Shown here: positions 13,645-36,968 of the stretch, piece after piece
How the letters are laid out: each line of letters begins with the position of its first letter
Position numbering within the stretch: the first letter of the stretch is position 1
Source of the DNA: a virus
Taxonomy: Duplodnaviria > Heunggongvirae > Uroviricota > Caudoviricetes
Length of the DNA stretch: 64,000 nucleotides
IMG/VR virus record: IMGVR_UViG_2721755710_000007
Location: 1 to 64,000 of that record
Strand: one strand, 5' to 3'
Translations under genes and position numbers: made by a program
Notes under the pieces: generated by a model
Seen by the model: only the letters and a program-made list of their open reading frames with translations
What the model was told of the DNA's origin: nothing
The model's database searches: none

Positions 13645-13814
13645 AATTATGCCTCACTGTATTGACAACACAGAGCCTGAAGCTCTGACCTACTGTTTCA
13701 CCCATGATCCATGCTGGGGTAATCTAACAACATTGCGCTGTGTGTAAGATGAGCAATGCGGTGATGCTGCCAACTTACTGATTTAGTGTATGATGGTGTT
13801 TTTGAGGTGCTCCA

Positions 13815-14090
13815 GTGGCTTCTGTTTCTATCAGCTGTCCCTCCTGTTCAGCTACTGACGGGGTGGTGCGTAACGGCAAAAGCACCGCCGGACATCAGCG
13901 CTATCTCTGCTCTCACTGCCGTAAAACATGGCAACTGCAGTTCACTTACACCGCTTCTCAACCCGGTACGCACCAGAAAATCATTGATATGGCCATGAAT
14001 GGCGTTGGATGCCGGGCAACTGCCCGCATTATGGGCGTTGGCCTCAACACGATTTTACGTCACTTAAAAAACTCAGGCCGCAGTCGGTAA
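13815..14090 (+). CDS. insA: IS1 InsA (91 aa)
   Basis: Matches IS1 InsA ([23 protein letters not shown]...). Confidence 0.95.
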
Positions 14091-14512
14091 CCTCGCGCAT
14101 ACAGCCGGGCAGTGACGTCATCGTCTGCGCGGAAATGGACGAACAGTGGGGCTATGTCGGGGCTAAATCGCGCCAGCGCTGGCTGTTTTACGCGTATGAC
14201 AGTCTCCGGAAGACGGTTGTTGCGCACGTATTCGGTGAACGCACTATGGCGACGCTGGGGCGTCTTATGAGCCTGCTGTCACCCTTTGACGTGGTGATAT
14301 GGATGACGGATGGCTGGCCGCTGTATGAATCCCGCCTGAAGGGAAAGCTGCACGTAATCAGCAAGCGATATACGCAGCGAATTGAGCGGCATAACCTGAA
14401 TCTGAGGCAGCACCTGGCACGGCTGGGACGGAAGTCGCTGTCGTTCTCAAAATCGGTGGAGCTGCATGACAAAGTCATCGGGCATTATCTGAACATAAAA
14501 CACTATCAATAA
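14009..14512 (+). CDS. insB: IS1 InsB frame (167 aa)
   Basis: Matches IS1 InsB; expressed as InsAB by -1 frameshift. Confidence 0.9.
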
Positions 14513-14513
14513 G

Positions 14514-15314
14514 TTGGAGTCATTACCCATGCAGCATTGGTACAACCTGAGCGACGGTGCCATGGAAGATGCCCTGTACGAAATCGCCTCCATGCGCCTG
14601 TTTGCCCGATTATCCCTGGATAGCGCCCTGCCGGATCGCACCACCATCATGAATTTCCGCCACCTGCTCGAGCAGCATCAACTGGCCCGTCAATTGTTCA
14701 AGACCATCAATCGCTGGCTGGCCGAAGCAGGCGTCATGATGACCCAAGGCACTTTGGTGGATGCCACCATCATTGAGGCACCCAGCTCTACCAAGAACAA
14801 AGAGCAGCAACGCGATCCGGAGATGCATCAGACCAAGAAAGGCAATCAGTGGCACTTTGGCATGAAGGCCCACATTGGTGTCGATGCCAAGAGTGGCCTG
14901 ACCCACAGCCTGGTCACCACCGCGGCCAACGAGCATGACCTCAATCAGCTGGGTAATCTGCTTCATGGAGAGGAGCAATTTGTCTCAGCCGATGCCGGCT
15001 ACCAAGGAGCGCCACAGCGCGAGGAGCTGGCCGAGGTGGATGTGGACTGGCTGATCGCCGAACGTCCCGGCAAGGTAAAAACCTTGAAGCAGAATCCGCG
15101 CAAGAACAAAACGGCCATCAACATCGAATACATGAAAGCCAGCATCCGTGCCAGGGTGGAGCACCCGTTTCGCATCATCAAGCGGCAGTTCGGCTTCGTG
15201 AAAGCCAGATACAAGGGGCTGCTGAAAAACGATAACCAACTGGGGATGTTATTCACCCTGGCCAACCTATTTCGGGTGGACCAAATGATACGTCAGTGGG
15301 AGAGATCTCAGTAA
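14514..15314 (+). pseudogene. IS5-family transposase, N-terminally truncated
   Basis: 266-aa ORF lacking the N-terminal ~60 residues of IS5 InsH. Confidence 0.85.
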
Positions 15315-15461
15315 AAACCGGAAATAACGCCAGAAATGGTGGAAAAAATAGCCTAAATAGGCTGATTCGATGTGTTTGCGGGAAAAAAATCGGCCCAGAT
15401 CCGCGAAATTTTAATCAGCGAGTCAACTTGGGAAGAAATGACCTGCTTATTCGCACCTTCC
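14528..15461 (+). mobile_element. IS5-family remnant, 3-prime ~930 bp, left part replaced by IS1
   Basis: Sequence starts mid-transposase (...[28 protein letters not shown]...) and ends with an IS5-type terminal repeat (cttattcgcaccttcc). Confidence 0.85.
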
Positions 15462-33612: not shown

Positions 33613-34189
33613 CCATTGTTAATCAATCGGAAAAATATTCATGCTAGCTCGCTCTTATCGCTAAGGTTATTGCTGCTTTCTGCCGATAACAGTGCAAGTT
33701 TTGCGATTTTTTTAAGCGCTTCACAGTTCGTTAGCAAGCTCAGTTTTTTTTGATAAAATTCTGGTCAGTTTGTTTAAAAAGTGTTACAAGTAAGGCGAAT
33801 GGTTGAATGGTTAGTTTTAAGACTCAAATCGGCAGTATTAAAATTCCAAAAGTAGCTTTTCATACTTCAAAAAACCAAACTTTAATTTCATGTAGAAGAG
33901 TTGTACTATTGTATTGACTCAAGGACAATCCGACATGTCAGAATCAGATAACATAACGCGTAACTATTACGTACCGAGGTTTCGATTATTCGTAGTTACC
34001 GTGCATTCCTAATGTTATTGCCTATCCATGATCTTCTTCGTATCAATCAGGGTCTCCACTCTTGCAACGCCGTCTATTTGGAGACGGATTTGGGACAATG
34101 ACTGATAATGCATTTGAAGTTGAAACTCGTCCGGGAAGTTTCCTCGTTCCACGTTCTTTAGGCAAAGAGATTTCCTGGGATAATTTTTT

Positions 34190-34720
34190 ATGGCTGTTGT
34201 CGATGGTGACACTAACGTTATTCGAGAATATGACAGTGACGATGCTGACTTCGGTATTTACAATGCTGGGGAAAAAGTTACTTTACTGTGTGGCCGGGAA
34301 GACTTTTATAATCCGACAAAAATTCAGCAGTTACGCTCTAAGTGTGTAGATATACAAAATGATTACTTTATTCAAATCTTCTTTATGTCAATGCTTGCAC
34401 CTGAGTTTGTCAGCATATTTTTTGGATTAAAGCCTGCCACCGCAGATGCAATAAAAGATGTTGGCGTTTCATCACTTAAAGCAATTAACGATGTTGTTCT
34501 CTTTCCGCGAACAATTGCCTTTACGCCAGGACTGGGGGATGATAGCACTACGTTAAAATCTAAAGTATTCGCCAGGGCATACGAATTATCTGCCGACATT
34601 CGTTTGGGTAAAGTTAGTGATGACTTAATGGAACTACTGCGTTACGACACTATGTTTACGTGTCACCGTCAGGATGTGTTTAACTCATTAGCAAATAAAG
34701 TGCTCTTGAAGGATTATTGA
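34190..34720 (+). CDS. hypothetical protein, 176 aa (an upstream out-of-frame ORF 34062-34349 may be a frameshifted N-terminus)
   Basis: ORF divergent from the two-gene operon; ends 7 bp before IS1 copy 3. Confidence 0.4.
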   Translation: MAVVDGDTNVIREYDSDDADFGIYNAGEKVTLLCGREDFYNPTKIQQLRSKCVDIQNDYFIQIFFMSMLAPEFVSIFFGLKPATADAIKDVGVSSLKAINDVVLFPRTIAFTPGLGDDSTTLKSKVFARAYELSADIRLGKVSDDLMELLRYDTMFTCHRQDVFNSLANKVLLKDY

Positions 34721-34726
34721 ATATGG

Positions 34727-35494
34727 GGTAATGACTCCAACTTATTGATAGTGTTTTATGTTCAGATAATGCCCGATGACTTTGTCATGCAGCTCCACCG
34801 ATTTTGAGAACGACAGCGACTTCCGTCCCAGCCGTGCCAGGTGCTGCCTCAGATTCAGGTTATGCCGCTCAATTCGCTGCGTATATCGCTTGCTGATTAC
34901 GTGCAGCTTTCCCTTCAGGCGGGATTCATACAGCGGCCAGCCATCCGTCATCCATATCACCACGTCAAAGGGTGACAGCAGGCTCATAAGACGCCCCAGC
35001 GTCGCCATAGTGCGTTCACCGAATACGTGCGCAACAACCGTCTTCCGGAGACTGTCATACGCGTAAAACAGCCAGCGCTGGCGCGATTTAGCCCCGACAT
35101 AGCCCCACTGTTCGTCCATTTCCGCGCAGACGATGACGTCACTGCCCGGCTGTATGCGCGAGGTTACCGACTGCGGCCTGAGTTTTTTAAGTGACGTAAA
35201 ATCGTGTTGAGGCCAACGCCCATAATGCGGGCAGTTGCCCGGCATCCAACGCCATTCATGGCCATATCAATGATTTTCTGGTGCGTACCGGGTTGAGAAG
35301 CGGTGTAAGTGAACTGCAGTTGCCATGTTTTACGGCAGTGAGAGCAGAGATAGCGCTGATGTCCGGCGGTGCTTTTGCCGTTACGCACCACCCCGTCAGT
35401 AGCTGAACAGGAGGGACAGCTGATAGAAACAGAAGCCACTGGAGCACCTCAAAAACACCATCATACACTAAATCAGTAAGTTGGCAGCATCACC
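34727..35494 (-). mobile_element. IS1, copy 3
   Basis: Identical to copy 2, same orientation, with insA/insB ORFs (35164-35439, 34742-35245). Confidence 0.95.
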
Positions 35495-36968
35495 TATCAA
35501 TGGCCTGGGCAATACTTTCCGTCGAAAATGATTGCAACATATTGCCGATATCCTCAAATCCAAGTGATTTGAGAGCCTCACCAATGGCGCTGCTAATACC
35601 AGATACCAGTCCCCCCATATCAAGAACATTAGCTAACGTATAAGCGGCTTTTTGCTGGAATGATGGATCTTGTCCTGATTTAAGCCCAAACGCTCGACGT
35701 TGCGCTTCTGTATCATTCCAACCGGTTACCGCATCATAAATACCTCCAGCCACTGTGCCGACTAGGGGAATTGCGCGTAACGCCCCTTTACCAACTGCCT
35801 TTAATCCAAGTTTACCTGCTGCCCGGGCAGCCAAATCTCCGCCTTCATGGGCGAGAGTCTTCTTGCCACCACCGCGTAGCATTCCTACAAGTTTCTTTGC
35901 CCCCAGAGCGCCAAAAGCGAGTGCTCCAGCTTTTTTCAGCATGCCACGCCCCATTAACAACGACGCGACGCCACCGGCCCCCTTCCCTAACAGGCTAAAT
36001 AGTTTGGACAGCAAGCCGCCCTTCTTTTTCCCGGTGTTTTTGGCTATCTGATCAAGGGCACGGAGAATCTTGTCATTGCCCTCTTTAATTTCGCTGGTCT
36101 GCTCCTGAAGTTCCTGAACCGTCCGTTTTTGGGTGTTAACCTGAACGACATCGGCACTATTTTGCGATTTACGCCTAAAAAAACCTTTTCTACGGCTGTT
36201 ATCGTCGTTGCCACGAATCACATCGGCAATAGACTTTCTGGCACCATTAAGCGATCCACCAACTTCTTTTGATATCCCGCCAAGCTCCTTCCCTGCTGCC
36301 CACAATGGACCAGCAACGGCATAACCTAACGCATCGACGGCACGAGTCTCTGAAGGGTTACCTATGCCTTCAGCTACTTTTGACAGTTTTTTTAATAAAC
36401 CTGATTCAGCATTTAGACGCTCATCATCCTCTTTGCGCCTGGCCTTTTCAGCACGTTCAGCACGGGCATCTTCCGCTGCGGCCTTACTCCCTGACTTTCC
36501 AATAAAACGACCACGCGCATCGCGTTGGTTTTGGCTTTTTTGCGCACCGCCTTTTTGACCGAACATTTCGCGAGCGTGTTCGGCTGCTTCGGTCCGTTGC
36601 GCCTTTACATCTTCTGTTATAGCCTTCTTGCGTCGTTTTTTACCCTTTCGCGTAGTTGATTTGGCCTGCGGTTCCTGTAGAGCAACATCCTCCTGAACTA
36701 CACGAGAAACGTCCCCTAAATTAAGCCGTTTCATTGCCTCAACAATAGGGTCCACTGATGGCGCATTGGCCACAAAGTCTGGCCGGGAATTTTCGATTGT
36801 GCGATTTAATGCCGACACACTGCGAGAGACAGGATCAACTGTAGCAACTCGCCCACCTTTCAAATCTTCAACGGCTTCCCGAATACCTGCAAGCTCTTCC
36901 AGCTCTTTTGCGCTGGCGGTTTCAACCGTCCTTATCACATCGTCAATGTTGGCGTTTTTTCTTTCCAT
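35490..36968 (-). pseudogene. phage structural protein (tape-measure/Sit-like), C-terminally truncated by IS1
   Basis: 492-codon ORF whose last sense codon and stop lie in the IS1 terminal repeat; Gly/Lys/Ala-rich tape-measure-like composition. Confidence 0.5.

Follow-up and report, generated by a model that had tools for sequence, protein, structure and literature searches.

Insertion sequences without target duplications in a P1-like plasmid: probable loss of one flank by IS-adjacent deletion

We analyzed a stretch of 64,000 nucleotides (positions 1 to 64,000 of the IMG/VR record IMGVR_UViG_2721755710_000007, hereafter the window), which is a P1-like (IncY-type) plasmid of Escherichia coli carrying three complete copies of the insertion sequence (IS) IS1 and one copy of IS2. 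None of these four elements is bounded by a target-site duplication. At each of them, DNA is missing at exactly one terminus, the other junction being conserved across relatives, and in all four cases the breakpoint coincides to the base with the IS terminus. We consider it probable that one flank of each element has been lost secondarily by IS-adjacent deletion; for the narrower proposal of a one-step route mediated by the transposase, the chances appear about even.

Element boundaries and flanking sequences

The IS1 copies were located by a repeat search, and their ends were set against the IS1 terminal repeats by means of exact searches for the terminal inverted repeats. Each copy is 768 bp long and is delimited by imperfect terminal inverted repeats of about 23 bp, both found with 0 mismatches (0 chance matches expected); the same exact search revealed no solo IS1 end in the window. 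The open reading frames (ORFs) encode 91 and 167 amino acids (aa), corresponding to insA and insB', and the A6C frameshift motif AAAAAAC lies at 14066-14072. The window IS1 is 98.8% identical to the annotated IS1 of P1, and RefSeq calls the IS1 copies at the same loci IS1A transposase. IS2 runs from TGGATTTGCCCC... to ...GGGGCCAGTCTA with overlapping orfA and orfB intact, its ends corresponding to the consensus terminal repeats of IS2. The identical copy in plasmid p02B17002_B carries the annotation of an IS3 family transposase with programmed frameshift.

A first-pass annotation of this DNA had listed the flanks of the four elements and had claimed that no IS1 copy, nor IS2, shows matching duplications. 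Our boundary reading gave exactly the same flanks (Table 1), and the claim holds under boundary shifts and cross-pairing. The left and right flanks differ at 7 of 9 positions for IS1-1, 9 of 9 for IS1-2, 4 of 9 for IS1-3 and 5 of 5 for IS2. No duplication of 8-9 bp (IS1) or 5 bp (IS2) was found, shifts of up to 4 bp yielding a repeat of at most 4 bp. Pairing the flanks on the side of the left inverted repeat (IRL) with those on the side of the right inverted repeat (IRR) gave 0 matches among the three window IS1 copies. When the pairing was extended to 25 IS1 copies from the window, five related plasmids and P1, only two true duplications were paired. As positive controls, P1's own IS1 displays the duplication TGCCCTCTG and one IS1 of pLH13-b-B the duplication TACAATGCG; for IS2, duplications are present in CP099028.1 (ATTTA) and NZ_LR130553.1 (GATAC), both in the same intergenic region as the window IS2.

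Table 1. Positions of the insertion sequences and of the surrounding features in the window
Feature	Position	Strand	Flanks or remarks
IS1-1	13760-14527	+	left flank GAGCAATGC, right flank CATGCAGCA
IS1-2	31169-31936	-	left flank TGATGTGCA, right flank CTTAAGAAG
IS1-3	34727-35494	-	left flank TGAATATGG, right flank TATCAATGG
IS2 (1331 bp)	29724-31054	-	left flank CAACC, right flank ATTTA
Truncated ISKpn26-like element (IS5 family)	14528..15461	+	position 263 to end retained
Remnant of autotransporter upstream region, 114 bp	31055..31168		between IS2 and IS1-2
Module M	31937..34726	-	26 bp of mobH, 240-aa ORF, mobI, 176-aa ORF
Autotransporter gene, 1165 aa	26190..29687	-	native upstream region replaced by IS2
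darB C-terminal remnant	22365..24211	-	P1 homology stops at P1 14437, the left cargo edge
sit, truncated P1 tail injection transglycosylase gene	35495..36968	-	codons 1-491 of about 1140 left

Comparison with related plasmids, in which the uninterrupted state of the sites can be read, showed that the two flanks of each of the four elements are not neighbours there, being derived from non-adjacent sequences. The absence of duplications is therefore not a matter of sequence decay. The idea that duplications once existed and were destroyed by point mutations, or that they escaped notice because the boundaries were misplaced, deserves practically no credit: the canonical inverted repeats are exact at the termini, moving the boundaries by up to 4 bp discloses nothing and the flanks map to non-adjacent DNA of the comparators, by which this explanation is refuted.

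Conserved and eroded junctions

The clearest comparison is provided by p22Q34-2, with which the window is colinear at 99.9% identity over about 53 kb, except for two gaps. The first one, of 7,618 bp, lies directly to the right of IS1-2 (IRL side) and corresponds in p22Q34-2 to EAL/GGDEF genes, an IS1, a phytase-like gene, a 92%-identical IS1 variant and 524 bp of mobH. The second one, of 881 bp, lies directly to the left of IS1-3 (IRR side). Each has one boundary precisely at an IS1 terminus and the other in unique DNA. The two outer junctions, namely the IRR junction of IS1-2 (TGATGTGCA) and the IRL junction of IS1-3 within sit (TATCAATGG), are common to p22Q34-2 and p02B17002_B, and the 114-bp remnant preceding IS1-2 reads on as CTGTCTGG... 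in plasmids that have no IS1 at this site. The two inner junctions occur in the window only: the IRL junction of IS1-2 (CTTAAGAAG) is the endpoint of the 7,618-bp deletion and leaves 26 bp of mobH, and the IRR junction of IS1-3 (TGAATATGG) is the endpoint of the 881-bp deletion. The combination of the junctions 31936/31937 and 34726/34727 is absent from all records of the plasmid and E. coli genome collections. These two deletion endpoints are the only new instances here.

The eroding side of IS1-2 is also variable in other plasmids. IRL-end junctions of IS1 were found at five nested positions of mobH in five plasmids (L006 coordinates 37803, 37142, 37063, 36740 and 36539), leaving 1290, 629, 550, 227 and 26 bp of the gene, respectively, the window being the most eroded. 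For IS1-2 itself, three IRL-side endpoints were counted across the related plasmids compared.

A similar picture emerges for IS1-1, an intact 768-bp copy within the imcA region of P1. The P1 sequence is continuous across the block formed by this IS1 and the adjoining 934-bp fragment of ISKpn26. The IRL junction (GAGCAATGC) is conserved in relatives, and the IRR junction is a deletion endpoint inside ISKpn26. One copy of the 4-bp duplication of ISKpn26, ATAG, follows the fragment at 15462-15465; the second copy is absent, as are the initial 262 bp of the element. At the same site, the ISKpn26 of plasmid pDX6A is intact and flanked by a perfect duplication of 4 bp, in the order GAGCAATGC-ATAG-ISKpn26-ATAG-CTGTAATG. 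In p1-H9 (L017, reverse-complement 1562-10385), two ISKpn26 surround a 6.4-kb dimethyl sulfoxide (DMSO)/selenate-reductase cargo, with the flanks ATAG-IS-TTAA...TTAA-IS-ATAG. This pattern is the signature of a cointegrate or of the capture of a translocatable unit, and the arrangement explains the origin of the truncated ISKpn26 beside IS1-1. An IS1 in plasmid pLH13-b-B again has GAGCAATGC at its IRL junction, and its IRR end is found 736 bp into the cargo, ATAG and the left ISKpn26 being gone. The window, p22Q34-2 and NZ_LR883966.1 share the same IRL junction, with the IRR end at position 263 of ISKpn26. Among relatives there are thus at least two IRR-side endpoints, and the loss on this side amounts to up to 7.9 kb (one ISKpn26, the DMSO-reductase cargo and 262 bp of the second ISKpn26).

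Concerning IS2, the right (IRL) junction, reading into ATTTA, is the original target, and the left (IRR) junction at CAACC is secondary. The IRR-side loss measures 139 bp, that is 134 bp plus one copy of ATTTA; the uninterrupted site including the 134 bp is found in 198 of the 226 plasmids carrying the site. The IS2 copy and both its junctions are identical in the window, p22Q34-2, NZ_LR883966.1 and p02B17002_B, and these four plasmids therefore share one inherited event. CP099028.1 harbors an IS2 in the same orientation at the exact right junction of the window, with the 134 bp intact and a perfect ATTTA duplication, from which it follows that the right junction is a genuine IS2 target and the left one is secondary. 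This IS2 is 95.9% identical to the window copy, the differences being evenly spread.

No microhomology was detected at the deletion endpoints of any element. Altogether, breakpoints at IS termini, conservation of one side, nesting and the absence of microhomology are, as judged by comparison of sequences, the textbook footprint of IS-adjacent deletion by intramolecular transposition.

Routes to the loss of one flank

We propose that each element would first have inserted in the ordinary way, with duplication of its target, and that the DNA beside one terminus would then have been removed by IS-adjacent deletion. The most likely mechanism would be intramolecular transposition, in which the IS ends would act on a target close by on the same DNA molecule, so that the intervening DNA is lost together with the duplicate on that side. 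IS1-2 would have undergone a 7.6-kb deletion on its IRL side, through the EAL/GGDEF genes, two further IS1 copies, the phytase-like gene and nearly all of mobH, and on their IRR sides IS1-3 and IS2 would have undergone deletions of 881 and 139 bp, respectively. For IS1-1, the IRL end would have stayed fixed 4 bp from the ISKpn26 insertion site in imcA, and successive IRR-side deletions (1.9 kb first, 7.9 kb in total) would have taken the left ISKpn26, the 6.4-kb DMSO-reductase cargo and 262 bp of the right ISKpn26. Since the IRL junction is common to the IS1 carriers, the simplest order would run from a p1-H9-type plasmid through a pLH13-b-B-type to the window type. Supporting this scheme, each IS1 has one flank that is fixed and another that varies across relatives, with nested endpoints. 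We infer both the order of the deletion events and the preference for transposase-mediated deletion over a second insertion followed by homologous recombination.

A parallel can be drawn with the classic IS1-mediated adjacent deletions by intramolecular replicative transposition, which were reportedly described by Reif and Saedler (1975) in the gal region and are said to have been studied further by Turlan and Chandler (1995). The likeness is close, as those deletions also start exactly at the IS1 terminus, keep the IS and its other flank, show no duplication and have nested endpoints. No mechanistic difference is apparent, except that the present events were deduced by comparative genomics and were not genetically selected. 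For IS2, the nearest comparison is IS150, likewise of the IS3 family, in the long-term E. coli evolution experiment (PMC11708052). There, missing target duplications have been attributed to adjacent deletions or to recombination between IS copies, and the adjacent deletions of the IS3 family extend stepwise over time. As in the window, the duplication beside IS150 was lost via a small adjacent deletion; the IS150 deletions range from 14 bp to 49 kb, often growing with time, to be compared with 139 bp here. The window element differs in being an IS2, on a plasmid, known from one state and not from a time series.

The strongest competitor, to which we give a clearly smaller though not negligible share of probability, involves two steps: a second copy of the same IS would insert nearby in direct orientation, and RecA-dependent recombination would remove the interval, leaving a single IS with mixed flanks. 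The sequence obtained in the end is identical to the one observed, this plasmid family is crowded with direct IS1 copies, and IS-IS recombination is a frequent cause of missing duplications (PMC11708052). Nevertheless, an extra insertion is needed for each endpoint, with five different endpoints in mobH alone, and the postulated second copies at those positions were seen in none of the comparators. Recombination with the resident 92%-identical IS1 variant of the deleted interval is excluded, because IS1-2 carries none of its sequence. The two-step route is thus less parsimonious for IS1, since every endpoint would call for an insertion of its own that has not been observed. For IS2 it gains plausibility, as the site looks like an IS2 hotspot: with at least four same-orientation IS2 insertions within about 220 bp, two IS2 copies lying 134 bp apart are readily conceivable.

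Another hypothesis would be that the elements inserted into a pre-existing double-strand break or gap, in a process coupled to deletion, so that no duplication was ever made. Events of this kind have been proposed for IS5 and IS481 (PMC11708052), and they would agree with the fact that no simple-insertion intermediate of the IS1 copies was found. On the other hand, the contrast between a conserved and a variable side, together with the nested endpoints, would require repeated events from a resident IS, and an ordinary IS2 insertion with an ATTTA duplication exists at the very same target. We regard this origin as quite improbable.

We also considered whether contigs could have been mis-joined across identical IS1 repeats, giving false junctions. 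The three window IS1 copies are 100% identical to each other and differ at five positions (202, 262, 444, 486 and 513) from their counterparts at these junctions in p22Q34-2, p02B17002_B and NZ_LR883966.1, where the flanking DNA is 99.9% identical to the window. This homogeneity points either to conversion of all copies in concert by another IS1 allele or to an artefact of repeat collapse or polishing; in addition, the junctions 31936/31937 and 34726/34727 are in no other record. Against an artefact, 6 of the 8 junctions recur in independently sequenced plasmids. Moreover, a mis-join of genuine IS1-flanking contigs could not have made the window-only junctions, because their flanks adjoin no IS1 in any relative. 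An assembly error is accordingly the least credible of these three alternatives, with a very small probability.

Several observations nevertheless weigh against deletion following ordinary insertion. Queries for a simple insertion, which combined the IS end, the 9-bp duplicate and the uninterrupted flank, matched no plasmid record for IS1-1, IS1-2 or IS1-3, so that the primary IS1 insertion is deduced and not seen. The IS2 of CP099028.1 is an independent insertion at the same target and not a direct ancestor. One-step transposition leads to the same sequence as homologous recombination after a second copy has been acquired, and sequence alone does not tell the two apart. The inverted orientation of module M, which contains mobI, is not producible by deletions alone. 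Finally, the two window-only junctions are without an independent assembly in the plasmid and E. coli genome collections.

Module M is inverted with respect to NZ_LR883966.1 and pDX6A, and IS1 trims it on both sides; at least one inversion must therefore have occurred in its history. Replicative inversion and recombination between inverted copies were both rejected as a single-event origin of this arrangement, as neither yields two direct IS1 copies. The pair formed by IS1-2 and IS1-3, two identical direct copies around a 2.8-kb segment, resembles a Tn9-like composite transposon. However, the outer flanks TGATGTGCA and TATCAATGG form no 9-bp duplication, and the outer junctions are old and the inner ones new, which is the reverse of a transposed composite.

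In the light of these results, the view of the first-pass annotation that each element sits at a rearrangement junction, produced by IS-mediated deletion, inversion or cointegrate resolution, is upheld and can be refined. One junction of each element is indeed eroded, but the other is old, conserved and likely to stem from an ordinary insertion. Deletion applies to all four elements and inversion to the mobI module, whereas a cointegrate was not found for IS1 or IS2, its signature being confined to the neighbouring ISKpn26-DMSO reductase cargo in p1-H9. The link that was made with lost backbone genes is borne out, P1 coordinates 14438-42937 being absent.

The P1-derived plasmid and its cargo

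The backbone is that of a P1-derived plasmid, with synteny to phage P1 at 96-99% identity overall; pacA-pacB-c1-coi and cra-cre-c8-ref are syntenic with P1 (AF234172) at 96-98% identity. Within the 64-kb window, the absent interval begins in the N-terminal portion of darB and ends in the C-terminal portion of sit, and from P1 42938, within sit, the backbone picks up again. Between darB and sit, about 28.5 kb of P1 sequence has been exchanged for about 11 kb of cargo, comprising a Phd/RelE pair, the 1165-aa autotransporter, IS2, IS1-2, the mobI module and IS1-3. The P1 genes that are gone include those for the portal, lysis, ssb, darA, the tail fibres and the baseplate, together with P1's own IS1 site. 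As essential virion genes are missing from it, the window represents a defective phage-plasmid.

Earlier work has described P1-derived plasmids that shed phage genes and acquired mob/oriT functions (PMC10879196). Like the window, they have a P1 backbone with c1, cre, pacAB and sit', have lost portal, lysis, tail-fibre and baseplate genes and have gained a MobI/MobH-type module; the window differs in that its relaxase gene is cut by IS1 to 26 bp. In pSvP1 and pTZ20_1P (PMC6906374), direct repeats that are missing or in reverse complement were likewise taken as a sign of IS-mediated deletion or inversion, and sit is also reported to be interrupted by an IS; the elements there are IS26, ISEc84 and IS186B, and the cargo is different. 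The phenomenon, the elements (ordinary IS1 and IS2) and the plasmid class are thus already known, and no new mechanism or system is involved.

Further features were observed along the backbone and the module. The darB remnant shows, relative to pDX6A, an IS-free internal deletion of 2,121 bp at 24181/24182 with a 2-bp junction microhomology (TA); this is an illegitimate-recombination event unrelated to insertion sequences. The P1 sit sequence just outside the IRL junction of IS1-3 (CTAAGTTGGTAATCCCAC; window 35477-35503, P1 42920-42945) resembles the IS1 terminal repeat (TAAGTTGG...CACC), which could reflect a target preference or chance. In module M, mobI is kept with its neighbouring ORFs (Pfam MobI, E = 1.4e-20), but only 26 bp of the MobH relaxase gene are left. 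The mobI module as such occurs in roughly 450 plasmids. Judging from this gene content, the plasmid, if mobilisable at all, would need a relaxase in trans.

Around IS1-1 (window 13435-15465), the block formed with the ISKpn26 fragment lies inside imcA (P1 94482-94595) and parts c1-coi-imcB from the P1coi promoter, the Oc1d operator and the lox-cre side; regulation of the immunity region is probably altered by these insertions. Plasmid pE16EC1016-4 has an 809-bp deletion adjoining ISKpn26. An apparent simple-insertion match for IS1-1 was discarded, as it proved to come from IncHI2 plasmids in which IS1 and ISKpn26 are neighbours in an unrelated context; the spacer there is CGTTAAGTCTAG, and that IS1 has no duplication. 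In the IncHI2 plasmid p17277A_477 (L011 3353-5328), an IS1 without duplication lies 8 bp from an ISKpn26-like element with the duplication CTAG. When the predicted IS1-ISKpn26 junction served as a query, at least 80% of it was covered by 304 plasmid records, of which p17277A_477 is the only one that was examined.

The end of IS2 lies 36 bp from the ATG of the autotransporter gene. At least four independent IS2 insertions have occurred within about 220 bp upstream of this gene (window 29688-31168; L012 3145-4475; L013 3224-4454; L014 1770-3100), and in these copies the IRR end and the direction of transposase transcription all point toward it. The common orientation of the four insertions is statistically non-significant, and promoter scans of the autotransporter upstream region gave nothing above shuffle expectation. 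From the position of the insertions, one could assume that the cluster may represent a hotspot, or else selection for IS2-driven expression.

One would also wonder whether the IS activity is more than background erosion. An unusually active IS1 allele, newly arrived or produced by conversion, may lie behind a burst of recent deletions, as suggested by the presence of one allele, distinct from that of the sister plasmids, in all three copies and of two fresh IS1-adjacent deletions in the window alone; the IS2 cluster and the deletion placing IS2 36 bp from the ATG could reflect selection for autotransporter expression. In our opinion, this reading is unlikely.

The value of this analysis lies mainly in annotation and reconstruction. 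The IS1-bounded segments of this plasmid should not be taken as composite transposons. The window offers a base-resolved example of IS dynamics with one fixed end and one eroding end, in a P1 phage-plasmid that has turned into a non-phage plasmid, in which IS1 and IS2 are still trimming the cargo, including the plasmid's own relaxase gene.

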